Shown here: in pieces, positions 43,924-63,906 of the stretch
How the letters are laid out: each line of letters opens with the position of its first letter
Numbering within the stretch: the first letter of the stretch is position 1
Source of the DNA: a virus
Taxonomy: Duplodnaviria; Caudoviricetes
IMG/VR virus record: IMGVR_UViG_3300003316_000399
Coordinates: 1-64,000 of that record
Length of the DNA: 64,000 nucleotides
Strand: one strand, 5' to 3'
Position numbers and translations under genes: made by a program
The notes under the pieces: generated by a model
The model's database searches: none
What the model saw: only the letters and a program-made list of their open reading frames with translations
What the model was told of the DNA's origin: nothing

Positions 43924-46900
43924 CTATAACCCAGATGGTGCAACTGGAAGTATACCAGACGGCGTTACGTCGCGTTCTACAATATCCCAACTACTCCAAA
44001 CTGTTTCTCCCTCTTGCGTAAAATCTCCGTCAACCCAGCCAGATGGATTAGGTACAAATCCCCAGGATAATCCGTCATTTGTTACATAAAATCCATCTAT
44101 GGAAGAGATGGTTTTCACATACGCGCCAACATTTTTTCTGTAACCCCTCCCAGATCTCATATTATACACAATCTTCAATGGATAAATTGCTGGTAGAAAT
44201 TCCATAGTTAAATTATCAGATTCAGTATTTTTAAACAGTCCGGCTTCTTCTGGCACAAGTCCTTCTGATGCTAAATACATACCATGTTCAGCAATTTGTA
44301 TAGAACGCAGGAATCCTAATCCTGTATTCTCTGGATTCTTTGGCTCCTTTGTATAACTATTGCCTGCTGAGTAATCTCTTCCCTCTGTCCAGAATGGAAG
44401 CGTATTTCCAAGACCCTGATTCTCTATGTTAGGGTTAACCGACATGCTCCGCGCACCGAGGCCGACAAAGGCATTTTCATTTGGACTAAACATTTGTAAT
44501 GTCTCTAATTTAACATCTCCAAATCTACCGGCTGCAAATGATCTAGATTCTCCAAGATCTACTCTGTTACGTGGTGTAGTCCATGTATAATTACTCGACC
44601 ATGATGGCAAAATAAACCATCCGCCATATGTGTTGGTTCCGGCATTGTCACCCTCTAAAATGTAAATTTTACTACCCTCTCCAAGAAATATATTATGTAT
44701 TTGACCAACATTGGAATCTTCTGTCGCATCATCTGGTAATGGACCAGTTGCTAACAGCCTTGCAGCAAAGAAATCAGTACCAGGAGTACGAACCCATAAT
44801 GTACCATTTGAGTTTACATCTTCTTTACCACTCACACCAAACAAATAAATAGTACCATCTTCAGCTATTTCCATACCCATAACGGTTGCAAGTGTGAATA
44901 TTGGTTCAGACGACGACCAAGGATTAAACGCGGGAAAATTAAACGCCAGCTCCTGCCATGTTCCTCCTGCGTCAAGCGTCTCATAAATATGTAAATTGGT
45001 TGGTGGAAAAGGAATATCATCCAATCTCCTAGAGCCACTTGTACCGAGAATGACCCAATGATCAGGGCTTTTAGGACGACCGCGAACTATCTGCCATTTA
45101 ATGTCTGGTAGGGGTGGCGTTTTTTTCAACCAAGCACCATCTTTATAATGCCAAATACCGTCGCGAGTATTTTCTGCTGAAGCGGTACCAACAATAATTT
45201 CAGCCTTTACACGCCTGCCAGGAGTACCATCATATCCAACCATATAACCAACTTCACCTGGTAAGCATTCTTTCATCACAATACCGCTTCCCATTAATGG
45301 GAAATATTTAACTAAGCCACCATTGGTAGCGACATACACAATATCTAACTCGGGATCGCGTATTGCATGATTTGCTACATTATTTGGATATTCTCCCGGC
45401 AAGAAACAACTGAATCTTGCGTCACCACCAACAACAGGACAAATCCATACACCGCCACGATCGTCAAAAACATATAATTCAGGACGATTGATTGCCATTG
45501 TCATAGCAGTAATTGATGATACATCATATAAACCACTGGGTGAAGCATTTTGTGAGAAGAATATAGAATCTCCTTCTACGCTTCTTACAACCGCGCCAGA
45601 TGTGACACCTGTAAAAGATACCCAATGTTTATCCTGTCCAGATGTGTAATAACTAGCTATTGATCCCAACGGACCCGCTAAAACTTCGTCCCAAGCTTCA
45701 CCACTAGTAGTTGACCAGTATACTTTATTACCAACAAGAATTTCAAAATTACCCGGCAGTGTTGGATTCTCAAGGACGAATGAAACCTCCCCCGGCGCTT
45801 CAATCGGTATCCAACTGGAACCTGCGTTCTCAGTTAAAATTATCTCGTTACCAAGTGCTAACATCACACGTTCAGGAAATCCTTCATTCTGCCAAATAAA
45901 TTGTATTGTGTTGATTGGATCTGTATATTTTATATCAAGAAATGATGTTTGCAAATAATCATTCGATGTATATAATATCCCACCAAACGCGCCACCATTT
46001 GCCATTAAACCAATACCACCATCTGTAAAAATACCTGACGGGGGTTCAGGACGAAGCGTATTGTTTGTTGGGCCTATCGGGGGTACCACTGTTGTTGATT
46101 CTAATTCAGCAGAATTCCAAGTATATCCAGCATCGGGAGAAACATACCAAGAAGTACCCGCTGCAAATGATAGGATACGCGCACCCGCGTATGCAGCACC
46201 ACTGATAAGCACTTGTTGTGTAATGGTTCCCGACGCACCGAGTTCATCAGTGACATATAATGTCACATCCATACCAGATGGTGCTGGGTTAAAGAACATC
46301 ATTGCTGATTGACCAGACGCGGTTTGTGAATCGTAGTTATTAGTCCATAAATAACTTGTAACCGGCGCAGAAGAAAATACATTAGACGCGTCTAGAAACA
46401 ACTCAGCAATTTGTATACCGCTCGTGATTGTTTCTAATGATACATTATATGTGAATGTAGGAGTAACGGTGCCATAATCAATTCTATCATCCGGCGAAAC
46501 ATCTCCTGGGTATGTTGTTAAGGTCATCTGCATTGTATAACCATTTTCAGAGGACATAGAAGTACTAATTTCTTCGATAACATAATAACCATCAGCGACG
46601 CTGGAATCTATACTAACTGTTAATGCTGGCACTAAGAAAGGATTACCGTCCGCCTCCATAGAAACTGTTTCTTTCAAACGATTTAGATCTGTCAAAACCC
46701 GTCTCGCTGTATAACTTGCCATTTCAGGAGTATCAATCAGCTCATTAGAAATTAACACACCGCGATATGGCGTGTTCCCAATATATGGTGAAGTTGATCT
46801 AGCAACGAACCGAATTCCTGACGCGCCACGTACTTCAACATAATTTCTCAGATCAGTATTAGTTCTTTCTTTTGAAATACTGTGAATATTTCCATCATCC

Positions 46901-47643
46901 CCATCCTCAAAATATGACCAATATACTTTAGAACTCCTATTCCTAGGCCGCTGTGTAAAATGAACTGTTCCACCAGGATCAGCATATACTCTCCAACCAA
47001 TAAGTTCACATATTTGCTGAATAGCATCATAAACATTTGTTAAATGAAATGTTACTGGTGATATATCTCCAATAAAGAAATTAGTTGGATTAACTTGTAT
47101 CTCTGAACCTTCTCTTAATCCAGTCATTACAAGCATCCATTGCACCACTGCTTCTGCCTTCACACCTTCATTTGTATAATTTCCATTAGTCTCTGGATGA
47201 CTTGAATTCAATGCCGCTAGTGAAGAATATTCATGTATTGTAAATGTACCACCATCAATATTACTATACGTACTATAGTAATAGGTTTCGGTATTTATGT
47301 CAAGGCCAAATTTGATTTCCTGGACAAGATATGTATCCATAGCTTTTTTCAGCACATCTCGCGCACGAATTGTTACAACGCGTTCACCAGCATCAGATCC
47401 ATTTGCATCAATAAATCCAGTGAAAGTTGTGTTTGTTGATCCATCATATCCCTGGCGCACGACAATTTTGTCCTCTGGATTTATTGATCGCGTATCCATA
47501 TACGTAACTGTACATTCACTTAAACTATCCTGTATTGAATGGCTTATTTCGACACTTAATACATTATTTATCTTTTTTCCATTAATTTCAACTACATAGG
47601 TAGGAGATTTTTCATAAGCATTAATACTATCTTTTAGGCTCAT
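43924..47643 (-). CDS. tail tip protein: baseplate-hub N-terminus, PKD-like domain, and BNR/Asp-box beta-propeller region
   Basis: Hub-like GY..FTGFID..ARD and DAIQQICELIG; SPDAGYTW, TENAGSSW, STTSGEAW, TLDAGGTW and TNDGLSW Asp-boxes; downstream of the tape measure. Confidence 0.8.
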   Translation of the reverse strand: MSLKDSINAYEKSPTYVVEINGKKINNVLSVEISHSIQDSLSECTVTYMDTRSINPEDKIVVRQGYDGSTNTTFTGFIDANGSDAGERVVTIRARDVLKKAMDTYLVQEIKFGLDINTETYYYSTYSNIDGGTFTIHEYSSLAALNSSHPETNGNYTNEGVKAEAVVQWMLVMTGLREGSEIQVNPTNFFIGDISPVTFHLTNVYDAIQQICELIGWRVYADPGGTVHFTQRPRNRSSKVYWSYFEDGDDGNIHSISKERTNTDLRNYVEVRGASGIRFVARSTSPYIGNTPYRGVLISNELIDTPEMASYTARRVLTDLNRLKETVSMEADGNPFLVPALTVSIDSSVADGYYVIEEISTSMSSENGYTMQMTLTTYPGDVSPDDRIDYGTVTPTFTYNVSLETITSGIQIAELFLDASNVFSSAPVTSYLWTNNYDSQTASGQSAMMFFNPAPSGMDVTLYVTDELGASGTITQQVLISGAAYAGARILSFAAGTSWYVSPDAGYTWNSAELESTTVVPPIGPTNNTLRPEPPSGIFTDGGIGLMANGGAFGGILYTSNDYLQTSFLDIKYTDPINTIQFIWQNEGFPERVMLALGNEIILTENAGSSWIPIEAPGEVSFVLENPTLPGNFEILVGNKVYWSTTSGEAWDEVLAGPLGSIASYYTSGQDKHWVSFTGVTSGAVVRSVEGDSIFFSQNASPSGLYDVSSITAMTMAINRPELYVFDDRGGVWICPVVGGDARFSCFLPGEYPNNVANHAIRDPELDIVYVATNGGLVKYFPLMGSGIVMKECLPGEVGYMVGYDGTPGRRVKAEIIVGTASAENTRDGIWHYKDGAWLKKTPPLPDIKWQIVRGRPKSPDHWVILGTSGSRRLDDIPFPPTNLHIYETLDAGGTWQELAFNFPAFNPWSSSEPIFTLATVMGMEIAEDGTIYLFGVSGKEDVNSNGTLWVRTPGTDFFAARLLATGPLPDDATEDSNVGQIHNIFLGEGSKIYILEGDNAGTNTYGGWFILPSWSSNYTWTTPRNRVDLGESRSFAAGRFGDVKLETLQMFSPNENAFVGLGARSMSVNPNIENQGLGNTLPFWTEGRDYSAGNSYTKEPKNPENTGLGFLRSIQIAEHGMYLASEGLVPEEAGLFKNTESDNLTMEFLPAIYPLKIVYNMRSGRGYRKNVGAYVKTISSIDGFYVTNDGLSWGFVPNPSGWVDGDFTQEGETVWSSWDIVERDVTPSGILPVAPSGL

Positions 47644-47655
47644 AATAAATATCTC

Positions 47656-48030: not shown

Positions 48031-48053
48031 TTAATAAAGCTCCTTGTTATACT

Positions 48054-48096
48054 AAAAAAGTCGGGATCAGAAACATCGATTTTCTGATCCCGACTT
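48054..48096 (-). terminator. intrinsic terminator after the tape measure gene
   Basis: 16-bp stem AAGTCGGGATCAGAAA/TTTCTGATCCCGACTT plus a T run. Confidence 0.8.
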
Positions 48097-48099
48097 CAC

Positions 48100-51000
48100 C
48101 TAAACTTGTCTATCCCTTAATGATCTTCCTGCTTTTAATCCTTGACCACCAGTGCTTTGCGCCTTACCAACACTAGCTCCTGGTGAAACAATATTACCCG
48201 GTTTACCATTTATCATTGCTTTCGCAGCACTGCCACCTTGATTAGCTTGTCCATTTACAATTATCTGCAGGGCAATCGGAGTAGCTGCTAGTAACGCAGC
48301 GAGATCAAATTTTCCTAACGCGGCTGCCGCAGTTCCAAGAGCTGTGGAAAAACTCGATATAGATTTTACATCTAGATTTTCTTTAGCAAAAGTTGACATA
48401 CGCACCGCAGCTGTTGCCGACACTTTTGCTAACATACCGAGTTCATTGTTCGATTGATTTGCTCTCTGTCCTAAATCTTGTAAACTATTTTTAACTGGCT
48501 TGCTACTGTTAGATAAATCTTCTAACCAACCTCGTCCACCGCCACCACCGCCACCACCTGACCGTTGCGCGGCTTGCTCCCGCATTGCGATGCTTTTAGC
48601 ATCTATTCGCTTTGATGTATTAACATCTCGATAGCTATATAAATCATATTCTTCTTCAATATTTCGAGGTGGTGCTGGCATTGAAGGTCTAAGATTTTCT
48701 AAAGCTTCATCGATAAATGGTAGATCTGGCTCAGTGATAACACGACCTGGAGTTCCTGGTGTTGGGTATCCCATTGGAGCCGCACCCGGCATAATAGTAT
48801 TACCAAGCGCAGCGAGATTTGGCGCCTCTTTTGTTGAACCTTGCTGACCTTGTAGAATTGCTTCTGCCAGCTGTTTAGCAAAGTCCATAGTTACCATGCC
48901 CTCTTTGCCCATTTCTGGAGATACATAGTTTACACTACCAGTTTCTTTTCCTCCTGCATTATAATAATCCCACACGGTTGGTGCGCGGTAATTTCCTGGC
49001 AAGTTATAGTGACCGCGTAACTGATCATTGCTTTCCGTATTCTCGTCTATTGCCATGCGCAAATACTCTTGACTTAAACCTGTTTGCATAAGTAAATCGT
49101 TATTCTTGCGCATGATCAATAAGCGTTCATCACTGTATTTCTCAGCTAAATCCGGTGCTAGATTTACAGCCTGGCTTTGTAGCTGTTGCGCGCGCTGAAT
49201 AATTTTTTGTGTTTGCTCAGGAGTATATTCAGAAAGATCAACGGTTTCCGGTGCTTTCAGTTGTTGTCGTTTCTGTTGTTGCTGTTGCAAATATTCATTC
49301 ACAAAACCCTGATTTATTCCAGCAACTGATTTATAAGAATCTCCGCTGCTCATCAGAAACTGCTGTTTTGAAAACTCATTACCCCAGGCCGGAAACATAC
49401 TTGTTAGATCACTTTGCTTTTGCCGTGCGTAATCCAACGCGGCGGATAAATCCTCAGTTTTATAATCTGAAACATCAAAAATATTAGGCGCTTGGAATTG
49501 TGCCGGTGTCCCTGCGATAACAGTTGTTTTCCTTGCGTCTTTTTGTGATTTGATCAAACCTAACGATTTCATAAGTGTATCTGGCTCTTGCTTAACCATT
49601 GCCAGGTATGCACGATATTCTACAGCAAGCATCTGCCGCGCCTGTAGCTGCTTTTGAACCGCGTCGTAACTTTGCGTTGCTTTAGTATGTTCTTCACTGG
49701 AGGTATCTATATATTCCGGCGTCTTTGCAATAGCAGTTGCCTGTTCTTGTAATGCGCTATATTCCTCCATAAAATTCTGCATCTCAACAAGTTGGGAAAG
49801 CTGTTGCTGGAACTCATTTTGACCTTCAGAGCCAATCTGATATAGCATCTTGTTCATGCCGGAAGTATCTTGACCAAGTTTTCTAGCAAGAGGATCAGCA
49901 ATCGCTAATGTATTTGGCAAAGCTTCCAATGAAGATCTTGCAGTTTGGTACTGTGACATTACATCTTCAGCTGCCTGACCAGTAATACGACCTGAACTTA
50001 TGTCGTTAAACTTGCTACTAAATACAGTGTTTAAACGCTGTGTTTGTCGTCCAAACGTGCCAAACTCAGTTAAGCCTGTTGGTACTTTATAGGTGTATTG
50101 TGATAACTCCCGCATATCGGACATCTTTGTTCTAATAGAATCAAGTGTTTCATTGATTCCACCAAAAATATCGCGCCCTTTTGACGTTTCTGAATTCTGA
50201 CTCTGCTGCAAATCGCGTATGGCTTGCTGGACTTGCTCTTGTTCTTTGATCTTTGCAGTAATTTCAGTATTCTCATCTTTTGCCTGCGTGAGCAGGTTAA
50301 GAAATTCTTTAGGATCTGATATACCAGAGTTCTGATAAAGTGATTTAAGATCGGGAGAACCCTCTAGCTTATTATAAAAATTCTCTACATTACCCAATGC
50401 ACCAACCCGGTAATTTGCTAAGAAAAAGTTATCTTGTATCGAGGAAGGATCACCGGCATTGGCAATCAGTCTTTCGTAATTCTTTAAATTCTCGGATGAC
50501 ACGGCAGTACTTGGTCCTGAAATTGGTGATTGTGAAAGAATTTCCTTTAATGCGTCGGCTTGCTCATAGACATTTTCTATACCGCCGGTTGATTTTGCCT
50601 CGGCATAAGCTGATGCGAATTTCTCTTGTTCCCGTCCACTAGTGCCCAAAAATGTTCCATATACATCAAAATACTCTGATACACCTTTACCAATCATATA
50701 TCCAACTTGGGCACCAAGAGGACCTCCAACAAATGCACCTGCAAACCCACCCGCAATACCGGCTCCAACATTCATCATATTCTCGCCACTAAAACCCCCC
50801 ATTGCAACATCCATACCGATGGGTAAAGCGAGATCTCCAAGTGTTCTACCAGTTTGTCCTAGAATTTTACCTGCTCTGGTATTCATGAAACCAGATACAC
50901 CAACTGCAGTTGGTTTGTCAGTCACACCTTTTAGAAAACTGTTTACTGCACCTAATCCCTGAACATTTGCAGTAGCAATTTTACCAACCTCAGCAACCTG

Positions 51001-54000
51001 CATTAAATCAACACTTAATGCTTTTGCAGCTGAGCCCAAGACCGATAGTGATTTTGAACCAGAAGCCTCCATGCTGGTAAAAATTTGCGCCAGGGCACGT
51101 CCTGCACCTGTTGCTGGTTGTAAAATTGCACGTAAGCCTAGTGTTAACTGTGATGTAAAACTGCGCACAGTGGTTGCCGCCATATTTATTACTTTAGCTA
51201 TCCCGGAAAAAGCATTCATCCCTGCCGTAAATACACCAAGGAATCCTATAATAACGGCTTGTAATGCTTGTTTTATCGTCTGAATAACTTGTGGATTTCC
51301 TTTTGCGGCGTCTGCAATTTCACGCATACTATCAGCGACACGTGTTAACGCGTTGCCAATATCATCCATCAATCCACTACCGAACAAAATTTCCTGTAAA
51401 AAGAGTGCAAAAGAACCTTGTAACTTATTTAGTGCTCCGGCGAAAACTTCACTTTTTCTTTTCAGAACTACATCAAATTCCTCACCGGTCATCTTTCCGC
51501 CCTCGGATGTGGGTTGCAGGGTTTGCTGAATTCGATCTACTTCAGGAATTGATTCGATTAACTTTTTAGCCTCGTTTGCCCGCGCACGACCGCCGAATGC
51601 CTGTGTAATCTCTTTGGATTTATATGGCATGTCATTCATCAAAGTATATGAATCTTTTAAAATATCATACCAAGATCTAAATCCAATGGTACCATCCTCA
51701 TTTACCTGCCGAACAGCGATTCCCAGCTTCTCTAAATCATCACGGCCCTCTCCATATGTACGTTCCATCAATGCTTTAATTGAGTTAGATGTTTCAACTG
51801 GAGATTTATTTAACTTGACCGCCGATGCAGCAGTAATTGCTAACAATCTATCTTGTGATAGACCAGCATCGCCTGCACTAGCGGCAAGCTGGGCATAAAC
51901 TTGAATCAGATCACTTCCTGCAGCTCCAGATTCCCTTTGGGCAACAACTAGTTTACTCATCAAGTTATTAAGTTCACTGACCGCAGCGGCGGCTCTAGCC
52001 GATGGATCGGTAATGCTTTCATCAATAGAGTCTCTGAGTTGTGCAAAAATAGCTGGTATTGATTCTAGAGATTCTTCTAATGAAATTCCGAATACAGTCT
52101 GTGACCCTAGCTGCGTTCTTGACAACGCGTTGCTGATCTCTTGCCGTTCACGCATATCTTGAATGGGCGCTAAAACTTTGAAATTTTGTATATTGGTCTG
52201 CACACCTTCGGTGAATCCCTGACCAGTTTCCACGGCGGTATCAATACTGTTGTATAAGAAATCCGATCCTGCTCTCTTTGTGGTACTAATATCAATTGTA
52301 CCGCTTGAGCTTTCTAAGAGTGTGCCTATCTCTGCAAGCTCATCTTGCATATCAACAATTTGTCCAACTAATTCTTGTAATTTGAAGATAAGATTCTCAA
52401 CGAATTCATCAGTAATTTGACGCGGTATTTCAATTGCCACCTGTTCTAAGAATTTTGAAAGTGGATTTTCTTTTGGTGTATCAAGAACTAAATTATTAAA
52501 TTCATCAATTTTTCCATTGAGTTGCACCATTGCGCCGGATGTTGTTTTTGCACTAATCGAAACGCGGTTGATCCCTTCATTAAAATCATAGACATACTCT
52601 GTATTGAAGCTTTCTCTATCCAGACCTTCACCAGATTTTTGCATCAATTTGAAATTAACTTCATCATATAAATCTAGTTGTTTGTTGGGAGATACTGCAC
52701 GACCAGCCGAGTAGGCTGCCATATTTATAAATCTGTCTTTTAAACCGCCAAACATGCCACTACGCGGCTTTGAAAAGTATTCAAAAGAAGGGCCAATGCG
52801 ATCTGGTAGAATTCCAGCCACTACATTACCAAGAGACAATGGGTTCTCTGGATCAGAGATCATTGTTTTGATCTGATTTGATAATATAGCCTGCATTGCG
52901 GCTTCAGAAGCGCGTATTGCTTTCTGTTTCATGCTGCTATTATTTGTAGAAACATTAGGATCTGGAATTCGCATTTCTTCGTAAGCGGCGGATAAAGCAC
53001 TTCCTATATCCGAACCCAAGATGCTAGAAATATACTCTGGTATATTACTAGTGAATTGATTCTTAAACGATGTGAATGATGTTTTAACTCTTTGCACCCA
53101 ACTCTGTTTTGTCGTGGATTTTAAAGCCGATGGTGCTTCATTAGAAACTGGAGTGGAAGTAACGCCGGGCATCTGTGTAGATGTTTTATCACTGTTAAAC
53201 GAAGGATCATAGAAAGCATATCCCTGAACCTGTGATGCAGCTCGATCCAATTCTTCACCGCTGGCGTTAATAGCAATTCCAATCGATTTATTTAGCTCCT
53301 CAACGCGTTCTCGCAATAGAACAATACCTTCTTTGCTGTACGTGTCGGGTGAGATTTCTTTAAGCGTTTTTGTAGCAATATCAAATAGCTCATTACCATA
53401 TAAACGTCTAAAGAAATTTATAAATTCGGCCTTTCCTGAAATTAATGCTTGTGAAACATTTGATAAAACTTCACCGCTTTTGAAATAGTAATCTTGATCC
53501 TTAAGAGCACCGCCCAAATCCTGCATCTGATTTTGGTCAAGAATATTGCTCGCAACGCGCATTGCTTGTTGTTGATTACCAGGTGTTGTGAGATATGCAC
53601 GTCTTTTAGCAATGGATTTCTCAAGATCAGTATTTTTAAGAGCTTTATCTCCAGCTGAAAATGTTAAACCGTGTGTTAATTCGTGAATAATAATATCAGT
53701 ATCATCCATGTATGTTAACGCGGTGCGATCGTCTCTATTTGTAAAGCCAAACGCTGTTTTCCGTCCGGTATTTCTATCGGTGTACGGTAACGATGCGCCA
53801 CTATAGCCACCGGCTTGTTTTGCAATTTCTGGAGCAACGCCCATGCCTTCCATTGTTGATACCATTCCCGAAGATGACAAGACCGCATAACCGGAAGCCA
53901 AACCCTTCTGAAAACTTGTGCCCTCAGAAAAATTCATAATTCCGGTTTCAATAATCTTCATGCGCTTAATATCTTCGGGAGACATTGTCTTTAACGCCTC

Positions 54001-56592
54001 GCGGCGCTGGTAATCTGCTAGTGGATCTCCAGTGCTTAAATCACCTGCGAAATCCTTGTTAATATTGGATTGCTTTGCTGTTTTTGATCCTGTTTCATAC
54101 CCAGCAATATTTCTATCCAACGCGTTGAGAATTCTTAATGCTTGTTCTTGCTGCTTCTCATTTAGAAAATCTTTATTGTTACTATACTGTTCCTGTAAAA
54201 CTTCGTAACCCGCACGTGTAAGATTATTAACTTTGGTCTGTACACCTTTTGGTAAAAATGGCATTACATTGTTGTTAAGGAAGCTCACACCAGCTTCACC
54301 AAAACTAAGCATAGTATCAGCACGTCGAGCAAATGCACCTTTATCAAAATCCTTAAATTTATTTGTTCCAAGGATTCGATCCATATTTAACACAGCGCGC
54401 CAAATATTTGTCAGTGCATAACCGATGTCAACAAAGGTACCAGGATTAAGCTGTCTAATAGATTCATCAAAAATCTCAAGTGCGTTAACAATTGCACCAA
54501 GCTGATTTGTAGCACCTACAAATTTTGCAACGCGTTGTGCTATTTTATTGACTAGACTGTCTCCGGTATCAGATTGCTTTAAAGTTTGCTCCAATCGGCG
54601 TTTTGTTTCTTCAACACGATTCGGTGTATAGCCCTGAGTAGGAGCCTGTCCTGAACGTCTGTAACTACGCGCCGCTTCTGGAGATTCAGCACTTATGTTT
54701 GGAGTTTCATCCGATGAAAGAAATTTAGCAAACTTTGTGACATTATTGAATAAACCTTTTGCTTTATCAACAAATGTTGAAGATGGATCTTTCACAGGAC
54801 CAAGCGCTGTTTTAATAGCATTGGCAATTTTTGATGATAAACCTTCCTCATTAATATATGCTGTATTACTTGAGTTTTCATCGCCGGATTGCTCACCAAT
54901 AAACGCGACTAATTTATCAAAAAATGCGCCAAGGTTCTGGTTTTGTGTAAATGATCCTACAGTATGAAGATCTTTAGCAACCTCTACTCCATTTGTTGAT
55001 CTTTTAGACTCATATACACCACCCATGCCAATAGAATCAAAAGCTGTAGGTCTAATATTTTTATTAATCTGATCAAATAGCAATCTAAAACCATCAGAAA
55101 CGCGTTTTGTAAAAGCATCAATGACTCTCTGAAATCCAGAATTAATTGTATTACCAAATTGATTTATAGAGGAAAGACTATTGGCAGATATAGTATTAAA
55201 AATACTCTTACCCATATCTAATAACTTTGAAAAACTATTAGCTGGATTTATTGATGCAAACTCATCGCGTACTTTATCAGACAATCGAGTTGAAAGCGGG
55301 GCACGCATTGCTGCAGGTGAATTTTCATCATCTCCAGGATTAATGTTTCTGCCTAAACCAAGATTGATTGCATCTCGAAATCTATCATTGTTATACTCAA
55401 TACCTAAATTCTGTTTAAAGTTATAGTTCAGTGTTCTAAAATCTGGTAATGATACGTTTCTGATATCAGAAGCAGCATTCGGATCTTTTGCTAATAGAGA
55501 TCCAATACTTCTAAGTTGCGCGATACGATCGTTGGACAACACCTGTCCGGTTTTTTGAGATGCTTTGATGTAATCATCAACAATCTTATTTGCAATACGC
55601 CGACGCTCAATCAGCATTGTTTTTACACGTTGATAAACTTCACTATCAACAGCAGCTGCTCGATCAATATTTTCCTGCTCAATCTGTATCTGATCAGCGG
55701 GACTAACAGCCGCAGCCTTCGGCTTTCGTGTTCTCTTGGGTTTTGGTATACTCTCCTGAACCTTTGCTTCGGGTGCCTGTTCTTCAATATCGCGGCGTAT
55801 TTCCTGTGCAACCTGTTGCTCACGGGAGACATCTGTACCAGCGGGTGTTTTTTGCTCAGGATTTGCTGGGTTTATACCTGTAATATTTAAATTTCCAGCA
55901 GCTTGCAAACGCACGAGCATTTGCTCCAATGGCTTTAGATGTGTAACAAGATCATCAATACTCTTAAAATTCTTACTGTCTATTTCAATTTTAAATGAAT
56001 TAACAGCCTGTTTTAAGGTATTGATATCCTTAGCAAGTTGCTTAAAATCTGTACTGGATGCATTTGATAAAGATTTTGAGAACGATGTAAAATCATTTAT
56101 AAATTTGTTAAAACCTGTATCATTCTCATTTATATTTGGAGCACTAAAATTAGTTAATTTTTGTTTTATTGAATCTAACTCGTTACCCACGTCTTTAAGT
56201 TCATTAGCTAGTGTTGACACTTCAACACGCGTTTTCTGGAATGAGTTAGCAATGCTTTGATTTGTAGATGACAATCTTTCTAAAACACTCGCTTGGCGCT
56301 CTAGAGCGTCGGTTAGCGATGTTAAACTACCCGAATCTAATCCTTTTAATACATCGCGTAATGCGCGCATATCCTGCTGCATCTGTTGAACATTCTCAGG
56401 CTTTAATTTTCCAAGACTGATCTGTATACGGTTGATAGCATCAACAAGTTGGCTCGCGTCTTTCGCCTCGGCAACAAGAGCACTAAAACGCGAGCCAAAC
56501 TTCTCAAGTCTGTCGTCAGCAGAGCTAATAACGCCGAGGAGGTCAAGTAGAACATTTTGTATTTCAGCCACTCGATTATCAAAATCTGACAT
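48100..56592 (-). CDS. tail tape measure protein (2830 aa) with internal HExxH motif
   Basis: Long helical protein after tail tube and chaperones; TMP core LEKLGIAVR...FRSWYDIL; Gly/Ala-rich hydrophobic segments; HELTH at 53671-53685. Confidence 0.9.
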   Translation of the reverse strand: MSDFDNRVAEIQNVLLDLLGVISSADDRLEKFGSRFSALVAEAKDASQLVDAINRIQISLGKLKPENVQQMQQDMRALRDVLKGLDSGSLTSLTDALERQASVLERLSSTNQSIANSFQKTRVEVSTLANELKDVGNELDSIKQKLTNFSAPNINENDTGFNKFINDFTSFSKSLSNASSTDFKQLAKDINTLKQAVNSFKIEIDSKNFKSIDDLVTHLKPLEQMLVRLQAAGNLNITGINPANPEQKTPAGTDVSREQQVAQEIRRDIEEQAPEAKVQESIPKPKRTRKPKAAAVSPADQIQIEQENIDRAAAVDSEVYQRVKTMLIERRRIANKIVDDYIKASQKTGQVLSNDRIAQLRSIGSLLAKDPNAASDIRNVSLPDFRTLNYNFKQNLGIEYNNDRFRDAINLGLGRNINPGDDENSPAAMRAPLSTRLSDKVRDEFASINPANSFSKLLDMGKSIFNTISANSLSSINQFGNTINSGFQRVIDAFTKRVSDGFRLLFDQINKNIRPTAFDSIGMGGVYESKRSTNGVEVAKDLHTVGSFTQNQNLGAFFDKLVAFIGEQSGDENSSNTAYINEEGLSSKIANAIKTALGPVKDPSSTFVDKAKGLFNNVTKFAKFLSSDETPNISAESPEAARSYRRSGQAPTQGYTPNRVEETKRRLEQTLKQSDTGDSLVNKIAQRVAKFVGATNQLGAIVNALEIFDESIRQLNPGTFVDIGYALTNIWRAVLNMDRILGTNKFKDFDKGAFARRADTMLSFGEAGVSFLNNNVMPFLPKGVQTKVNNLTRAGYEVLQEQYSNNKDFLNEKQQEQALRILNALDRNIAGYETGSKTAKQSNINKDFAGDLSTGDPLADYQRREALKTMSPEDIKRMKIIETGIMNFSEGTSFQKGLASGYAVLSSSGMVSTMEGMGVAPEIAKQAGGYSGASLPYTDRNTGRKTAFGFTNRDDRTALTYMDDTDIIIHELTHGLTFSAGDKALKNTDLEKSIAKRRAYLTTPGNQQQAMRVASNILDQNQMQDLGGALKDQDYYFKSGEVLSNVSQALISGKAEFINFFRRLYGNELFDIATKTLKEISPDTYSKEGIVLLRERVEELNKSIGIAINASGEELDRAASQVQGYAFYDPSFNSDKTSTQMPGVTSTPVSNEAPSALKSTTKQSWVQRVKTSFTSFKNQFTSNIPEYISSILGSDIGSALSAAYEEMRIPDPNVSTNNSSMKQKAIRASEAAMQAILSNQIKTMISDPENPLSLGNVVAGILPDRIGPSFEYFSKPRSGMFGGLKDRFINMAAYSAGRAVSPNKQLDLYDEVNFKLMQKSGEGLDRESFNTEYVYDFNEGINRVSISAKTTSGAMVQLNGKIDEFNNLVLDTPKENPLSKFLEQVAIEIPRQITDEFVENLIFKLQELVGQIVDMQDELAEIGTLLESSSGTIDISTTKRAGSDFLYNSIDTAVETGQGFTEGVQTNIQNFKVLAPIQDMRERQEISNALSRTQLGSQTVFGISLEESLESIPAIFAQLRDSIDESITDPSARAAAAVSELNNLMSKLVVAQRESGAAGSDLIQVYAQLAASAGDAGLSQDRLLAITAASAVKLNKSPVETSNSIKALMERTYGEGRDDLEKLGIAVRQVNEDGTIGFRSWYDILKDSYTLMNDMPYKSKEITQAFGGRARANEAKKLIESIPEVDRIQQTLQPTSEGGKMTGEEFDVVLKRKSEVFAGALNKLQGSFALFLQEILFGSGLMDDIGNALTRVADSMREIADAAKGNPQVIQTIKQALQAVIIGFLGVFTAGMNAFSGIAKVINMAATTVRSFTSQLTLGLRAILQPATGAGRALAQIFTSMEASGSKSLSVLGSAAKALSVDLMQVAEVGKIATANVQGLGAVNSFLKGVTDKPTAVGVSGFMNTRAGKILGQTGRTLGDLALPIGMDVAMGGFSGENMMNVGAGIAGGFAGAFVGGPLGAQVGYMIGKGVSEYFDVYGTFLGTSGREQEKFASAYAEAKSTGGIENVYEQADALKEILSQSPISGPSTAVSSENLKNYERLIANAGDPSSIQDNFFLANYRVGALGNVENFYNKLEGSPDLKSLYQNSGISDPKEFLNLLTQAKDENTEITAKIKEQEQVQQAIRDLQQSQNSETSKGRDIFGGINETLDSIRTKMSDMRELSQYTYKVPTGLTEFGTFGRQTQRLNTVFSSKFNDISSGRITGQAAEDVMSQYQTARSSLEALPNTLAIADPLARKLGQDTSGMNKMLYQIGSEGQNEFQQQLSQLVEMQNFMEEYSALQEQATAIAKTPEYIDTSSEEHTKATQSYDAVQKQLQARQMLAVEYRAYLAMVKQEPDTLMKSLGLIKSQKDARKTTVIAGTPAQFQAPNIFDVSDYKTEDLSAALDYARQKQSDLTSMFPAWGNEFSKQQFLMSSGDSYKSVAGINQGFVNEYLQQQQQKRQQLKAPETVDLSEYTPEQTQKIIQRAQQLQSQAVNLAPDLAEKYSDERLLIMRKNNDLLMQTGLSQEYLRMAIDENTESNDQLRGHYNLPGNYRAPTVWDYYNAGGKETGSVNYVSPEMGKEGMVTMDFAKQLAEAILQGQQGSTKEAPNLAALGNTIMPGAAPMGYPTPGTPGRVITEPDLPFIDEALENLRPSMPAPPRNIEEEYDLYSYRDVNTSKRIDAKSIAMREQAAQRSGGGGGGGGRGWLEDLSNSSKPVKNSLQDLGQRANQSNNELGMLAKVSATAAVRMSTFAKENLDVKSISSFSTALGTAAAALGKFDLAALLAATPIALQIIVNGQANQGGSAAKAMINGKPGNIVSPGASVGKAQSTGGQGLKAGRSLRDRQV

Positions 56593-56877: not shown

Positions 56878-56900
56878 TATTGAAAACTGCGCCGTCTTTG

Positions 56901-57578: not shown

Positions 57579-57604
57579 ATTTAACTCCTGATCCTCTTTC
57601 AAAT

Positions 57605-57660: not shown

Positions 57661-57681
57661 CATCCCTTAGCCGCACTGAAA

Positions 57682-58926
57682 TTAAGCCGACTTTTCACCC
57701 TTATAGAAATAAATCTTATTGCTACGCGAAGCAAAGTTATAAGTTACTCGTGCGTCCTGACCAACCTGTGTATTGTTCTGCTCCTGCGTAATATCCAGTT
57801 TTGGAATCCAAATGGTCTCCTCGGGTCCAACAACATTTCGGTCAACGCCGCGCCGGAAAACTCGGATTTCTAGACCCCAATTTGTACTGTCACCAAGATC
57901 ATTCGGTGTCCAGTTATCACCATCTACATCGTTCGCGGACAACTGCTTCTGAATCTTAAAATCATGCAGCAGAAGTTCTAGAGTACCAGTGATCTCAGGA
58001 ATTGAATCCATGTAACCAACAACCTCTTCTGAACCGAGTTCATTGATACGTGTGTTGGGGAACTGACCCTGTACTGTACAAGTCTGAACACGATACACAC
58101 GATCCTCAACTCCAGAAGCAGTATCTACCAGCCAAATTTCCACACCCCAACCCCGCACTCCAACCGGCTGATCAGGAAGTGGAGTTGCACCGTATGCAAC
58201 ATGCGGAAACTCATATGTATAATCCCACTGATTACTCAGATCAGCATGATACATAACAGTTACAGGCGTATCGTCAGCCACGGTCTCAGTATCAAAGGTA
58301 ACACTAGTAGAAGTAGACGATGTGATAGCCTCACGTGGCAAATAGCCTAAACCACTTGCAAACGCGGAAAGGACGTATGAACCATTCTTCAGCACGCGCG
58401 CGACAGGTGATGTGAAAGTAAACAGGCCAGTCTCGTCAACCGTACCGCTCGCAACTGCCACATCATACTTTAGAAAATATCTATTGGTTGCATTAAAACT
58501 AAACTCTTCAGTGCTATCACCACCAACTGAATAGTTTAATGAGAATCGCTCCAGCTTTGCACCAGGAACGAAAAGAGTGCCTACAATCTCGTCACTATCA
58601 CGCGCGGCCTTGAAAGGCTGCTCAAGACAAACATAATCAATATCCTGAGCTTCAACAGAACTGCCTGACGGAACAGCAGTCCAATCTACGCCAGCTAGGG
58701 CAAACTTTGTCCTAACACCAACATCCATAGAAGAAACTGTTACAGTGACTTCAGGAAGATCAAAGATACGACCAGCAATCTGATCAGAACCAAGCTCCTG
58801 CACCGGAGTGGTAGGAAGGTTTGCACCGATCTCAGCTCGCTGTACACGACCGAGACGAGTCTTACCAAGTCCATTAATGGCGTTGATTGCAGTCTCTTTG
58901 AAATTAATTGAGACTCTTGATCCCAT
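57682..58926 (-). CDS. major tail (tube) protein
   Basis: Beta-rich with two internally similar halves (RVQ...QELGS...PEVT and RVQ...NELGS...PEIT); followed by a terminator and the chaperones. Confidence 0.75.
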   Translation of the reverse strand: MGSRVSINFKETAINAINGLGKTRLGRVQRAEIGANLPTTPVQELGSDQIAGRIFDLPEVTVTVSSMDVGVRTKFALAGVDWTAVPSGSSVEAQDIDYVCLEQPFKAARDSDEIVGTLFVPGAKLERFSLNYSVGGDSTEEFSFNATNRYFLKYDVAVASGTVDETGLFTFTSPVARVLKNGSYVLSAFASGLGYLPREAITSSTSTSVTFDTETVADDTPVTVMYHADLSNQWDYTYEFPHVAYGATPLPDQPVGVRGWGVEIWLVDTASGVEDRVYRVQTCTVQGQFPNTRINELGSEEVVGYMDSIPEITGTLELLLHDFKIQKQLSANDVDGDNWTPNDLGDSTNWGLEIRVFRRGVDRNVVGPEETIWIPKLDITQEQNNTQVGQDARVTYNFASRSNKIYFYKGEKSA

Positions 58927-58947
58927 ATAAATCTCCTAAAAAAAAAA

Positions 58948-59409
58948 TTAAATACCGATTACATGTAAGTCAGTAAATATTACGCCTACCCAAAAGAATT
59001 TCTCATTCTCGGTATCAAAATTTGGTAATGATTGTATTTTCATATAATCACCAAATTGACATGTATATTCTACATATGAGCCACTGGCAGGTATATTACC
59101 AGAGTAGTTTGAATATATTTGTACAGAAGATGTATGTAATCCTTCATATAATGCAGATAAAATTGCGTCGCGTTGCATTCTTGACTTTGCACTTATATTA
59201 TATATACACGGAATTGATGTACCGAAAGAACCAAGTTCGATGTTCATAGTCTCTACATCACCTAATGATACCGCAATGGCTGGATTCTTGAACGACGGAT
59301 CGTCAAATCTTACACCATAACTTTCTCCAGCCATAACCTCGATACCAGACGGTGCTATATCTACCGCGTTCTGTATAACTGCCCTATATACCTTTTCTAA
59401 AAAATACAT
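58948..59409 (-). CDS. tail terminator/completion protein
   Basis: PAIAV...IELGS...ISAKSRMQRD; position before the tail tube; start MYFLEK. Confidence 0.6.
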   Translation of the reverse strand: MYFLEKVYRAVIQNAVDIAPSGIEVMAGESYGVRFDDPSFKNPAIAVSLGDVETMNIELGSFGTSIPCIYNISAKSRMQRDAILSALYEGLHTSSVQIYSNYSGNIPASGSYVEYTCQFGDYMKIQSLPNFDTENEKFFWVGVIFTDLHVIGI

Positions 59410-59416
59410 ATTATTC

Positions 59417-60250
59417 CTAAAATGGTAATCCAAAAGACAATTCGCGAGCATAATCCTCGATAGAAATATACTCTTCATGTTTTGGGCGTTTTGCAGATAC
59501 CCAATTTAATAAATTTCCATACACATCGCTAGATGTAGATTTATTATTTATGAATGTGTCAAGTAAATATTCATCCAGCCAAGCGCGTCCGATTCTCAGC
59601 CAGTTCGATAAACTACGCTCCGCATCCTCAATAAAATGCAAACCCGGAACATTAGGATACCCTGGCCTTGATCCAAAACTAGTACCGTAATTAAATGGCA
59701 TTAAAAATGGAACTAACTCCACAACTTCAGCGAATCTAGAATTGCGATCATAAATCACATCTTCGTAGGTTACAATTTTACCATGCCGTCTAACGCGATC
59801 TAGAACCTTGATTCTGTAATGTGGTTTCGACATCACATCTTCACTTTTTGACGGAACACGTTTCGCAATGATTGGCTGGCTTTCATCAAAAATAGCTTGC
59901 CAATAGACCAACCGCGTTCTATAATTGTTAGCTGTTCTGCGTGTACGATAACCAGATTCTTGCCAAGACTGTAATAATCTATTACTGCCGCTTAATACAA
60001 GATCATCAAATATGCGATTCTGCGACAGTGATACATGCCTTGTAACAAATCTTGTAAAATGCCCAACAATAGCATAGCGCAGGCTCGGAGCGCGTATGGC
60101 TTCTGGATGATTAGACATCCTCGTATCAGCCAACCGAATCATTGTGTTATACGCAATTAGTAAGCAGACAGCTTTTATATAATTACTAATATTCGGTAAT
60201 TCTCTAATTATATCATTTGTTTTGATGCGTAGATTCTTAAACTCGGCCAT
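59417..60250 (-). CDS. neck/head-tail region protein
   Basis: NYGT...PGLHFIE reminiscent of HK97 gp10-like proteins; position. Confidence 0.5.
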   Translation of the reverse strand: MAEFKNLRIKTNDIIRELPNISNYIKAVCLLIAYNTMIRLADTRMSNHPEAIRAPSLRYAIVGHFTRFVTRHVSLSQNRIFDDLVLSGSNRLLQSWQESGYRTRRTANNYRTRLVYWQAIFDESQPIIAKRVPSKSEDVMSKPHYRIKVLDRVRRHGKIVTYEDVIYDRNSRFAEVVELVPFLMPFNYGTSFGSRPGYPNVPGLHFIEDAERSLSNWLRIGRAWLDEYLLDTFINNKSTSSDVYGNLLNWVSAKRPKHEEYISIEDYARELSFGLPF

Positions 60251-60271
60251 AACACATCTCTTTTGACTTTA

Positions 60272-60541
60272 CTATTCCTCTATAGTAAGACCAACACGCC
60301 GCTCAATTTCTCTACGAAGATCGTTATATCCATCTAAAACAGCTTTCCGAACCTCTCGAAATATCTCGGGAGGAAGATTTAAGCTTTCTAACCGACTAAG
60401 TGTATGTTTTGTATGCTTTCCAGTTGCATGATCTAGCATTTCTAACATATTTAGTAAGTCTGGAACGGAGTATGTTTTTGTCATAATTATTTTTTCCTCA
60501 TCTCCTTTGTTAACTAACCCTATAACCTCCTGTATTTTCAA
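60272..60541 (-). CDS. hypothetical protein
   Basis: VRKAVLDGYNDL helix; structural operon. Confidence 0.55.
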   Translation of the reverse strand: MKIQEVIGLVNKGDEEKIIMTKTYSVPDLLNMLEMLDHATGKHTKHTLSRLESLNLPPEIFREVRKAVLDGYNDLRREIERRVGLTIEE

Positions 60542-60968
60542 TCTCTATAAGATTCAAATACACATGTGTAATTTCAGATAATCCTGAATATGCCCAATTT
60601 TTAACGCTACAAATACGATTGTCTACCTTTACTGTAACAATTTTGTTAAGTATATCATCAATGATTGTATTAGTAGCAATGATGATACTACAATCACCAT
60701 CTACAGCTTGACCCATAGGTGTATATAACTTGGTGTCACTGATAGCCCATCGTATTTCCGCATTATAGACCATTGTAGTTTCTACACGTATAACGCCATT
60801 GCCATTGCATGTTGGACAAAATGGATCAACATCATCACCACACGTTGGACAAATTTCTTGTGATGCCTGAAGCGTTAGAAGAACTGGTCTTCCAACAGCA
60901 TCAATAATCCCAGCAATAACTTCTTGTTGTATTTTAATATCAGGCTTTTGAATTTGAATCGCGCTCAT
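60510..60968 (-). CDS. head-closure-like protein with zinc-finger insertion
   Basis: CPTC...CPTCNGNG; position in the head-tail module. Confidence 0.55.
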   Translation of the reverse strand: MSAIQIQKPDIKIQQEVIAGIIDAVGRPVLLTLQASQEICPTCGDDVDPFCPTCNGNGVIRVETTMVYNAEIRWAISDTKLYTPMGQAVDGDCSIIIATNTIIDDILNKIVTVKVDNRICSVKNWAYSGLSEITHVYLNLIEIENTGGYRVS

Positions 60969-62139
60969 TTATAACCGCCGTCAATAATTCTGAAAATTCA
61001 TTGGCTACGTTTTTCCAAACGTAATCCTCACGGTTAACTAATTCGTAACCTTTTATACCAATCTCTTTTCGATAATTTGCATCTACATACAAAAGATTTA
61101 ATGCCTGAACAAAAGCTTGTTTATCAGCAATACCACCAATTGTGTTAATACCTCCGGGACGAACCTCAGTTGTATAACAAGGGATTGCAATACCGCCATC
61201 TGCTGCCCACTCACCCAATGCAGACCAATTTGGAAAAACCTGAGGTACCGCACAAGCCATTCCTTCCATCTGACACAAACCCCATCCCTCACCATTAGTA
61301 GTGGAGATCTGCACATCCAGCGTGCTGTAAATAAATTTCATCTGTTCCTTACTCACGCCATTGAGAGAAGTTATTGCTGGTGAAGTAACAATTAAACGAT
61401 TTTTCACGCCGTAATAATCCATAAGATCAGGAATATCCCAACCAACATCATTTAATGAACCATGAAATAAAAACTTTACAGTCTCTGGTTTATGCTCTGC
61501 AAACTCTGCAAAGTATTCAATAGCAAGATCAAGTCTCTTTCGTGGCTGGTTTCTGTTCACTGATCCAACAATAAACAAATCTTCAGCTAAACCACCCACT
61601 TTGCGCGCAACAGCGCGCTCAACTGGGCTAAAAATAGATCGATCAAATCCGTGTGGAATAACCTGTAATTTCGTAGTCATACCTGCATTTAAAAACTGAT
61701 TTTTCCCGAATTCTGTATAAGCGATAGCGACATCAAGCCAATTAAGACCTTCTCCAAATCGACGTTGGATGTTTAATCCATCAACTGGCATATACGCGGC
61801 TTTGATTCCATCATAATTTGCTAAATCAAATGCTTCCTTATAACGGATAACAACCCATGGATCATTTACCATCAATACCGCATCTGGTTTGATGGTATGT
61901 AGTAAGCCAGGTAATCTATTAACTCCGTGCATATCGCCGCCGGTTAAACTTGGATAAATTGGATAATTAAATGAATGCGGATCACCTCGATAGTTAATAC
62001 CAAGAATATGAATATTCCATTGTTTTGATAAATTATCCGCAATCCCATGAACAACTGTTGCAAAACCTGTATGACCTACTGCATCCCCTACAATAAGAAG
62101 TGATGGCTTTGATGGTACTGAACGTCCCCTCATAATCAA
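60940..62139 (-). CDS. glycosyltransferase family 4 (GT-B)
   Basis: TGFATV, VIPHG, NRNQPRKR and EGWGLCQMEGMACAVP. Confidence 0.92.
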   Translation of the reverse strand: MIMRGRSVPSKPSLLIVGDAVGHTGFATVVHGIADNLSKQWNIHILGINYRGDPHSFNYPIYPSLTGGDMHGVNRLPGLLHTIKPDAVLMVNDPWVVIRYKEAFDLANYDGIKAAYMPVDGLNIQRRFGEGLNWLDVAIAYTEFGKNQFLNAGMTTKLQVIPHGFDRSIFSPVERAVARKVGGLAEDLFIVGSVNRNQPRKRLDLAIEYFAEFAEHKPETVKFLFHGSLNDVGWDIPDLMDYYGVKNRLIVTSPAITSLNGVSKEQMKFIYSTLDVQISTTNGEGWGLCQMEGMACAVPQVFPNWSALGEWAADGGIAIPCYTTEVRPGGINTIGGIADKQAFVQALNLLYVDANYRKEIGIKGYELVNREDYVWKNVANEFSELLTAVINERDSNSKA

Positions 62140-62148
62140 ATTCTCCTT

Positions 62149-62769
62149 TTAAAATCGCATTACAATGTAAGGGAACGAAGACTTTGTTCCCCCTGCTAAT
62201 TTGCCTTTAAAAAACGCATTGAGTTCATTAAATGCGTTCTCATAAATTTGACTCAAAACTCTGCTCTTTTCCAAATTGGAAAATGTATAATCTCGTGTAG
62301 ACCAGTGTTGAAATGATTCTGCACTGGATGTTAAAATCATTCGTTGAAGTGCTAGAACAGCGGCTAGTATTACAATATATTGATCATATTCTGAGATAAC
62401 GGGCTGATCATCTGTGAATGTATGACGCGGGTTTCTTACAACATCCCCGTTATCCAATCCACTTGGAACTGAGGTGTAAGAATTATCTATTTTCACATAC
62501 TCATATCCAGATGGAACAATAGTGATAACACCATCGGTATCTGTAACATCTTCATACCAATAATAAACATTCTCAGGAAGAGGATGTATCGATGTAACAG
62601 ATTGACCAGTAACATATTTCCTATCCCATCGTCGTTCCAGCATAATAATCCCAGCAATTAATGCTGTTCTAAGAATAATATCAGAAAATCTGGTCCCATC
62701 GTAATCTCCAATATGAAAGCGGAGCTGCGGAATTAGATAATCGATATTTGTAGGATACTGTACTAACAT
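62149..62769 (-). CDS. head-tail adaptor-like protein
   Basis: LIPQLRFHIGD...FSD pattern; position. Confidence 0.6.
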   Translation of the reverse strand: MLVQYPTNIDYLIPQLRFHIGDYDGTRFSDIILRTALIAGIIMLERRWDRKYVTGQSVTSIHPLPENVYYWYEDVTDTDGVITIVPSGYEYVKIDNSYTSVPSGLDNGDVVRNPRHTFTDDQPVISEYDQYIVILAAVLALQRMILTSSAESFQHWSTRDYTFSNLEKSRVLSQIYENAFNELNAFFKGKLAGGTKSSFPYIVMRF

Positions 62770-62771
62770 AA

Positions 62772-63002
62772 TTATCCACTATTCCGCGAGGCGCGTAGTG
62801 CAATATATTTCTCAAGATCCTCATCAGTTAATGTGGATAGAATTTCACTAATATCTTGATTTCTACGTTTTTCAATATCTGTTTCTACGATTTTAACTGT
62901 AGCTGACAAAGTTTCATGAAGACTTTGTAAATCCTTTGATGAGAATGATTGACCGATAAACTGCACCCAGCCCTCGACAGATATAAAAATACCATTTAAC
63001 AT
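62772..63002 (-). CDS. hypothetical protein
   Basis: ORF in the structural operon. Confidence 0.5.
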   Translation of the reverse strand: MLNGIFISVEGWVQFIGQSFSSKDLQSLHETLSATVKIVETDIEKRRNQDISEILSTLTDEDLEKYIALRASRNSG

Positions 63003-63011
63003 ATTATTTTT

Positions 63012-63272
63012 TTACTCTCGTACAACATTGAGATTGGTTCCATGACCAGCGTTAAGTAATGTAATTAATGCATTCTTAGTTGTTGAAACCACTGCCACAA
63101 CTTTATTGGCATCTAAATCGCTATTACTTCCTTCAAAAGCTTCTGCATCAAGCCAACCAGAACCCCCGTTATAAGTAAGCTCTCGCTCCATAGCATCAAG
63201 TGCATCGATAGCTTCAAGCAAACGAGTCGCGTTATAGCGAGTAAGTGTGACATAATCCTGTTTACGTGACAT
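63012..63272 (-). CDS. hypothetical protein
   Basis: ORF with GGAG RBS. Confidence 0.6.
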   Translation of the reverse strand: MSRKQDYVTLTRYNATRLLEAIDALDAMERELTYNGGSGWLDAEAFEGSNSDLDANKVVAVVSTTKNALITLLNAGHGTNLNVVRE

Positions 63273-63294
63273 AGTTTATCTCCCATCTCTTTCA

Positions 63295-63906
63295 CTAAGT
63301 AATAAGCCCAAAATTCCTAGCCGCTGTCCAAACTCTATTTAACATAGTTTGTTCATTAGAACCATACGTTGCAGCAGCTGTCAATGCTCCTCCTGTTTGT
63401 CGAGCAACCGCCGCTGCGCCTAGGAAACCAATCATTGCTTGTGTACCGTCAGATTCTAATTGTAACACTGTTCTAGCTGCTGTATCATGAATAAAAATAG
63501 TAGATCTGGCAGCACGTGTGGAATCTGTTGCACTGGACCATACTGTGCGTAAGGTTAACGCAGTTCTATTTGTAGTAGTGCTTGATTGTAATCTCAAAAC
63601 AATATCACTACCAAAGTTTGCAGCAGGTGTTCCAGAACTTGCATTTCTATCAACCGTGAGTACAGTGGCGTTTGCGGTAGACGCGGGGGATGATTGATGA
63701 ACTACGCGCATCGGTAAACTTGAAGTAACCTGCGTAGACGTTGAAATAAGTGCTGAATTACTCAAAATACCACTTGCTGTAAATACAGGTACAGAATCTA
63801 CAGTTCCGCTGCCGGTTATGGCATCGCCTTGCTCTAAAAATTCGTTCGTATTTTGTTTGATGAAAATACGACCTCCGGTACTGTAAAGAATGAGACCTTT
63901 TTGCAT
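63295..63906 (-). CDS. Ser/Thr/Ala-rich fibre- or decoration-like virion protein
   Basis: Beta-rich composition; C-terminal IGFLGAAAVARQ...FGLI typical of fibre/decoration ends. Confidence 0.55.
   Translation of the reverse strand: MQKGLILYSTGGRIFIKQNTNEFLEQGDAITGSGTVDSVPVFTASGILSNSALISTSTQVTSSLPMRVVHQSSPASTANATVLTVDRNASSGTPAANFGSDIVLRLQSSTTTNRTALTLRTVWSSATDSTRAARSTIFIHDTAARTVLQLESDGTQAMIGFLGAAAVARQTGGALTAAATYGSNEQTMLNRVWTAARNFGLIT

Follow-up and report, generated by a model that had tools for sequence, protein, structure and literature searches.

A GT4 glycosyltransferase gene among the head-to-tail joining genes of an uncultured siphovirus, and Pro-Ser-Gly words that probably mark beta-turns in its virion proteins

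The uncultured virus record IMGVR_UViG_3300003316_000399 is 91,632 bp long, and its first 64 kb (the window) hold, on the minus strand, a gene for a GT4-family glycosyltransferase lodged among the genes that join the head to the tail. A sequence-only reading of the window had connected this gene to a [P/A]-S-G motif recurring in the outer virion proteins, and had proposed a virion glycosylation system with its own O-glycosylation sequon. The observation itself is confirmed, all of its counts being reproduced. Of the proposal, the part that concerns the enzyme stands as plausible, an intact GT4 gene being packed into the head-tail joining operon in a conserved position, and the [P/A]-S-G sequon is not supported. 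We consider it probable, on balance, that an intact GT4 is fixed in this operon, where it likely adds sugar to virion components, and that the PSG words are beta-turn motifs and not the sequon of GT4.

The GT4 Enzyme and Its Place in the Head-to-Tail Module

The gene and its immediate neighbors are:

60940..62139, minus strand: GT4 (GT-B fold) glycosyltransferase, 399 amino acids (aa), TTG start (Pfam, PHROG, alignment to a solved structure)
62149..62769, minus strand: head-to-tail adaptor candidate, 206 aa, with VPSGY (86-88) and VPSGL (102-104) (fold matches, gene order)
60510..60968, minus strand: neck protein candidate, 152 aa, overlapping the GT4 stop by 29 nt (open reading frame (ORF) list, orthologue order)

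The presence of a GT4 gene among the structural genes is real: its product matches PF00534 at 33.5 bits (cut-off 26.4), PF13692 at 29.7 bits (cut-off 27) and phrog_2170 (E 8e-39), and no other protein of the 91.6-kb record matches PF00534. The full-length alignment to chlorovirus NY-2A B736L (3oy2_A, E 3e-18) pairs residues 14-390 with residues 3-391, and the E-x7-E element, E284-G-W-G-L-x3-E292, falls on EGFGLCSAEG of B736L. H163, G164, R196, K201, E284 and E292 are invariant across eight orthologues, and the enzyme is, as judged from these residues, catalytically intact. A gap of 9 nt separates the gene from its upstream neighbor, and 29 nt are shared with the downstream one; terminator- and promoter-like sites around it are no commoner than in shuffles, and GT4 would be transcribed with the late genes. 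The 152-aa neck candidate has no family match in Pfam or PHROG searches, and its orthologues come after the GT4 gene in L013, L018, L019, L104 and L105.

The arrangement recurs in related phages. An IMG/VR search with the adaptor returned eight loci, and a GT4 homologue lies directly downstream in every one of them, so the adaptor-GT4 pair is tightly linked. One complete IMG/VR genome of 105.9 kb, G001, is syntenic with the window across the module and carries GT4 (52% identity) in the same slot. A search with GT4 itself found relatives on at least 562 IMG/VR contigs; among 80 loci sampled from these, 61 have connector, Neck1, major-tail or chaperone genes alongside, 20 have this adaptor family, and the other neck/tail loci carry different connector families. 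A GT4 embedded among particle-building genes is a common arrangement in related phages. The placement is kept in relatives, and a virion role is therefore reasonable: GT4 would most likely add sugar to at least one virion component during assembly, and virion glycosylation by this enzyme is plausible from sequence.

Three short contigs also contain the capsid-adaptor-GT4-neck-tube module of the window, two of them binned as TM6 (L104, L162) and one as Arenicella (L105). Most likely these are phage contigs that were binned together with a possible host, or else fragments of prophages, and the binning offers only a hint at host range.

The placement also bears on an alternative in which GT4 acts late in infection on an acceptor other than protein (a small molecule, or a glycan that is lipid-linked or part of the cell envelope) and the module boundary is simply a stable insertion site. 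Cellular homologues with 34-45% identity occur in Prosthecobacter fluviatilis (Verrucomicrobiota; L123) and on an Acidobacteriota chromosome (L169), where they adjoin another GT4, a polysaccharide pyruvyl transferase, a Ser/Thr kinase and other cellular genes; viral and cellular clades are intermixed in a quick tree; the best NCBIfam matches of GT4, albeit far under the cut-offs, are to MshA and BshA, enzymes that act on small molecules; and a second glycosyltransferase candidate and an FkbM methyltransferase are encoded outside the structural operon. An acceptor of this kind appears rather unlikely, however, given the strict adjacency to one adaptor family in 8/8 loci, the neck/tail context shared by several connector families in 61/80 viral loci, and the packing of GT4 among late genes with overlapping reading frames. 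No integrase was found in the record, which is 53% complete by CheckV, and nothing thus points to a role in lysogenic conversion. The GT4 family is common to phage neck modules and to bacterial loci of the envelope-glycan type.

Pro-Ser-Gly Words in the Virion Proteins

The proteins that carry the motif, together with the tape measure, are encoded as follows:

43924..47643, minus strand: tail tip protein, 1239 aa, six PSG, all within residues 455-1239 (phrog_1887 'tail protein')
48100..56592, minus strand: tape measure, 2830 aa, 27 SG, no PSG (motif counts)
57682..58926, minus strand: major tail (tube) candidate, 414 aa, PSG86, ASG159, ASG190 and ASG270 (precedes two chaperone-sized ORFs and the tape measure)
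58948..59478, minus strand: 176-aa protein, APSG and PASG, previously called the tail terminator (gene order only)
63295..63906, minus strand: Ser/Thr/Ala-rich protein, 203 aa, TASG (motif counts; no family match)

The tip protein, which ends in TPSGILPVAPSGL, has three ASG and five TSG besides its six PSG. The four SG dipeptides of the tube candidate are one PSG and three ASG, both SG of the adaptor candidate are VPSG, the 176-aa protein has a third SG (YSG) next to APSG and PASG, and TASG of the 203-aa protein is accompanied by GSG and SSG; every one of these counts agrees with what had been claimed. The tape measure, which lies inside the tail, had been offered as a contrast. It does lack PSG, but only 0.67 would be expected, and PSG is likewise missing from those of G001, lambda, SPP1 and T5, so its absence is without weight.

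The proposal that GT4 recognizes [P/A]-S-G in exposed loops as its acceptor sequon, spread through otherwise unrelated outer virion proteins, draws its strongest support from composition. In a set of 20 putative virion-module proteins (tape measure and GT4 left out, expectation computed from the composition of each protein), PSG is observed 10 times against 1.31 expected, an observed-to-expected ratio (O/E) of 7.6. It is the most enriched tripeptide of the set (Poisson p 1.3e-6; runner-up KIQ, 2.9e-6), and 3 of 400 whole-set shuffles yield any tripeptide as extreme (family-wise p ~0.0075). The non-structural proteins of the same genome show no such excess, with 3-4 PSG against 3.1-3.4 expected, depending on whether a 1109-aa fibre is counted among them. 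The PSG excess in this genome thus survives composition correction, the check that the sequence-only reading had named, and did not vanish as would be expected of a by-product of composition.

The 1109-aa fibre is encoded outside the window (G000 81903-85232, plus strand; L004:3903-7232; the label G000 denotes the whole 91,632-bp record, and its coordinates above 64,000 lie beyond the window). It has 29 SG against 9.5 expected, and six GS; only one of the 29 SG is part of a PSG. Five consecutive SG within residues 192-237 are spaced 9-12 residues apart, which looks like the turn of a beta-solenoid, and residues 688-718 give a weak Mtd_N match.

The Adaptor Motifs as Beta-Turns

The adaptor candidate offers the deepest alignment. 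A full HMMER search collected 115 family representatives, and the 34 full-length members give the following column counts:

P86: kept in 27/34
S87: kept in 16/34 (Ala 5, Asp 3, Glu 2, Val 2)
G88: kept in 28/34
P102: kept in 26/34
S103: kept in 18/34 (Asp 5, Asn 3, Glu 2)

Of the three motif residues, Ser is conserved least in this family. The words thus bear the signature of a Pro-x-Gly beta-turn and not of a hydroxyl acceptor, because Pro and Gly are kept while Ser varies. In an AlphaFold2 model built from the 34-sequence alignment (predicted local distance difference test score, pLDDT, 89.4), residues 86-88 connect strands 83-85 and 89-94, and residues 102-104 come directly after strand 97-102. 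The expectation that the motifs occupy surface loops is borne out to this extent, for the adaptor model: both VPSG are predicted at beta-turns, which would usually be exposed, as a sequon would require, yet they read as turns and not as sugar tags.

Among 22 distinct GT4-linked adaptors, 13 lack P-[S/T]-G and six lack the hairpin altogether. The adaptor of G001, on the other hand, has four SG, all of them hydrophobic-PSG-hydrophobic, and that of P0003 also has four PSG, as might be expected of a sequon.

The name 'adaptor' has moderate fold support. The best matches of the model are portal-tail adaptor chains of KHP30, GP4, PhiM1, SU10, cyanophage A4 and T4 gp13/14, with modest scores (Foldseek E 8e-3; VIA Z ~7, root-mean-square deviation 5-7 A over residues 7-206), and the 206-aa gene lies between head and tail genes, as fits such a role; on the predicted model, the label is reasonable. 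Most structural proteins are without a Pfam or PHROG match, so the gene names in use before are mostly positional: 'head closure', 'tail terminator' and 'tail tube' come from gene order only, and the 414-aa tube candidate has no family match in Pfam or PHROG searches.

Motif Sites in the Tip, Tube and Other Proteins of Relatives

Relatives lacking the enzyme had been expected to lack the motif. Every relative found carries GT4, and the converse comparison shows that retention of GT4 does not go with retention of the motif. The G001 orthologue of the tip has a single PSG and shares not one of the six PSG sites of the window. The tip matches phrog_1887 over residues 123-377 (E 2.5e-14), residues 400-1239 have no homologue in a search of 5.8 billion proteins, and neither the tube nor the tip protein matched any of 50,697 phage records by tblastn. 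Internal repeats were considered as a source of the tip PSG sites and ruled out, none being found in the protein.

Tube orthologues are 55-66% identical, and ASG159 is the one position maintained in all four, one of them having Thr in place of Ser. At 65% identity (G001), PSG86, ASG159 and ASG190 are kept; at 54% identity (L105, the contig binned with Arenicella), ASG159 is the only one of the four sites to remain. Overall, the Ser of a tube site is kept in ~6/12 orthologue comparisons, no better than the general identity of 55-66%. Neither APSG nor PASG of the 176-aa protein is kept in G001, and the non-structural proteins of G001 also show a PSG excess (9 against 2.7 expected), at odds with a signal reserved for virion proteins.

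A Ser/Thr-rich C-terminal extension was sought in the capsid and tube and not found, and their C-termini differ among orthologues. The stretches of 25 residues richest in Ser and Thr are in the 203-aa protein (13/25, the module maximum) and at tube residues 199-223 (12/25); as targets of GT4 they are candidates only. In the adaptor family, S164, conserved to at least 90%, is a further candidate for a residue that tracks GT4.

Baselines from Other Phages

Shuffling ignores secondary structure, and lambda, SPP1 and T5, phages without a neck-module glycosyltransferase, were therefore taken as controls. The PSG O/E in their virion proteins is 2.9, 1.5 and 2.2, respectively, and 2.26 when the three are pooled (8 against 3.54 expected); their SG O/E is 1.17-1.54, with GS at ~1. 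SG followed by a hydrophobic residue is a generic feature of beta-rich virion proteins, because these phages, too, show PSG and SG excess with GS near expectation. The PSG excess of the window accordingly shrinks, since virion proteins generally run at ~2.0-2.3 times expectation.

The neighbors of GT4 homologues behave in the same way. In 434 non-redundant neighbor proteins (96,288 residues), the O/E is 2.03 for PSG, 1.44 for SG and 1.96 for PDG, an analogue that cannot be O-glycosylated, and PSG ranks 20th of 5,247 tripeptides. In this set, PSG is no more enriched in the clade that shares GT4 than PDG is, or than PSG is in lambda, SPP1 and T5, and the idea that GT4-bearing phages are enriched in a sequon fails here. 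With a variable Ser in the 34 adaptors, 13 of 22 GT4-linked adaptors free of the motif, six tip sites all absent from G001 and a single tube site left in L105, [P/A]-S-G is quite improbable as the sequon of GT4, even though PSG tops the tripeptides of the virion set. An enriched Ser-containing word is not evidence of a sequon until it has been compared with beta-turn baselines, with a PDG-like analogue and with relatives that share the enzyme.

Beta-Turn Words, Virion Sugars and What Weighs Against Them

In the reading that we favor, the hydrophobic-[P/A]-S-G-hydrophobic words would be beta-turns of all-beta virion proteins, Pro occupying i+1 and Gly i+3 with a small polar residue in between at i+2, and turn words of this kind would run about twofold above composition expectation in the virion proteins of any phage sampled. 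The further PSG excess would come mainly from the six unconserved sites in the distal tail tip, and would be best read as lineage-specific structure combined with post-hoc selection of the motif.

Several results weigh against this account. The PSG excess within the genome is not fully explained, a modest surplus being left in the distal part of the tip: against a 2.1-fold baseline, and before the post-hoc choice of motif is allowed for, the virion set retains p ~6e-4 (10 against ~2.8) and the tip alone p 0.002 (6 against ~1.3). Nine of the ten PSG are followed by a hydrophobic residue, and the closest relatives, G001 and P0003, have gained extra LPSGW/LPSGV copies in the adaptor. None of 840 ORFs near GT4 homologues has more than two PSG, and these loci rarely extend to tip or fibre genes. 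A fast-evolving, lineage-specific acceptor is possible. By analogy, it is also possible that the acceptor is not a protein, because the Verrucomicrobiota homologues sit in polysaccharide-type loci.

If the neck-module GT4 does glycosylate virions, the reach of glycosylation biology would widen to take in a large group of uncultured phages. Tentatively, the adaptor-GT4 pair and the neck/tail GT4 genes of hundreds of uncultured siphovirus contigs may form a widespread virion glycosylation system outside actinobacteriophages, with quickly evolving acceptors that could include the PSG-hydrophobic turns of the distal tip.

Known Systems and Companion Genes

Passages on mycobacteriophages, the one established precedent for such a system, place glycans on the C-termini of capsid and tail-tube subunits (Freeman et al., 2023, as cited in PMC12619734 and PMC12363180), and sugar coats on the particles affect antibody recognition (Freeman et al., 2023, as cited in a passage of PMC12363180). 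Such coats could also affect adsorption and stability. The passages on Che8, Corndog and Myrna describe a situation like that of the window, a siphovirus with a phage-encoded glycosyltransferase for which virion proteins are the proposed substrates. In contrast to the mycobacteriophages, the capsid and tube of the window lack a Ser/Thr-rich C-terminal extension, and the phage is known from sequence alone. A tblastn search of GT4 against the same 50,697 phage records matched 10 records, with no mycobacteriophage at E 1e-5 or better.

The best solved match, B736L of chlorovirus NY-2A (PDB 3oy2, 3oy7), is likewise a virus-encoded GT4 and shares E-x7-E, but it comes from a eukaryotic giant virus and has low sequence identity to the GT4 of the window. 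The capsid protein of chloroviruses is glycosylated by enzymes that the viruses themselves encode; to our knowledge, the acceptor of B736L is not established. The GT4 pair GtfA/GtfB, the O-GlcNAc transferase of streptococcal serine-rich repeat adhesins, illustrates that a soluble GT4 O-glycosylates protein Ser/Thr in the cytoplasm. This transferase acts on long Ser-rich repeats instead of isolated P-S-G turns, and its likeness to the GT4 of the window is that of shared family membership.

The closest named phage homologues found by tblastn are in Synechococcus phage S-CBS4 (35.6% identity) and in the gp06 cluster of Tetrasphaera phage TJE1 (28.4% identity). In S-CBS4, gp014-gp016 are, in order, a GT4, located among head genes, a 'galactosyl transferase' and a methyltransferase; the phage of the window has homologues or analogues of all three, but dispersed in its genome. 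S-CBS4 gp013, upstream of its GT4, was tried as a member of the adaptor family and rejected (hhalign probability 0.2%). In TJE1, the GT4 homologue is clustered with genes for a guanylate kinase, a sugar epimerase and a methyltransferase, and the genome of the window similarly has a guanylate-kinase-like gene adjoining a methyltransferase gene, overlapping the start of the FkbM methyltransferase gene at G000 71320-72544 (plus strand; L003:9320-10544).

The second glycosyltransferase of the window is encoded away from the structural operon:

37792..38490, minus strand: second glycosyltransferase candidate, 232 aa, among replication genes (phrog_29879 'galactosyl transferase')

It matches phrog_29879 at E 1.2e-10 and S-CBS4 gp015 by BLASTP at E 2e-7, and has no Pfam, NCBIfam or PF00535 match. 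Both this candidate and the guanylate-kinase/FkbM pair are absent from G001.

Phage glycosyltransferases that modify DNA are well known, according to a passage of PMC12619734 (citing Pyle et al., 2024), and this genome has genes for a DNA methylase and for a P-loop kinase resembling guanylate kinase, as would suit a GT4 that glycosylates hypermodified bases of the phage DNA against restriction. This role is nevertheless highly improbable: the GT4 gene lies among neck genes and not replication genes, and its closest solved GT4 relative is the chlorovirus enzyme. No thymidylate-synthase-type hydroxymethylase was found in the record, weak evidence given its 53% completeness.

Genome Layout and Other Observations

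IMG/VR labels the record as a provirus. The head/neck/tail module occupies the minus strand from ~70 kb down to 43 kb, and the portal and the 1109-aa fibre are on the plus strand, outside the window. At 2830 aa the tape measure is very long, and that of G001 even exceeds it (3742 aa); near the C-terminus, from residue 2678 onward, the tape measure of the window has a run of seven Gly after an SG (QRSGGGGGGGRGW).

Upstream of the portal, an 860-aa ORF (G000 77776-80358, plus strand; L003:15776-18358) contains LAGLIDADG and intein-splicing domains; its G001 orthologue has 518 aa, and the ORF is probably the large terminase gene interrupted by an intein. Two minus-strand ORFs of 135 and 98 aa, overlapping by 7 nt (G000 64469-64876 and 64870-65166; L003:2469-2876 and 2870-3166), both match one 233-aa ORF of G001. 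For this head-module gene, a split into two, a frameshift introduced by sequencing and a programmed frameshift are all possible. Both the 135-aa ORF and a neighboring Ser/Thr-rich protein of 178 aa match phrog_4368.

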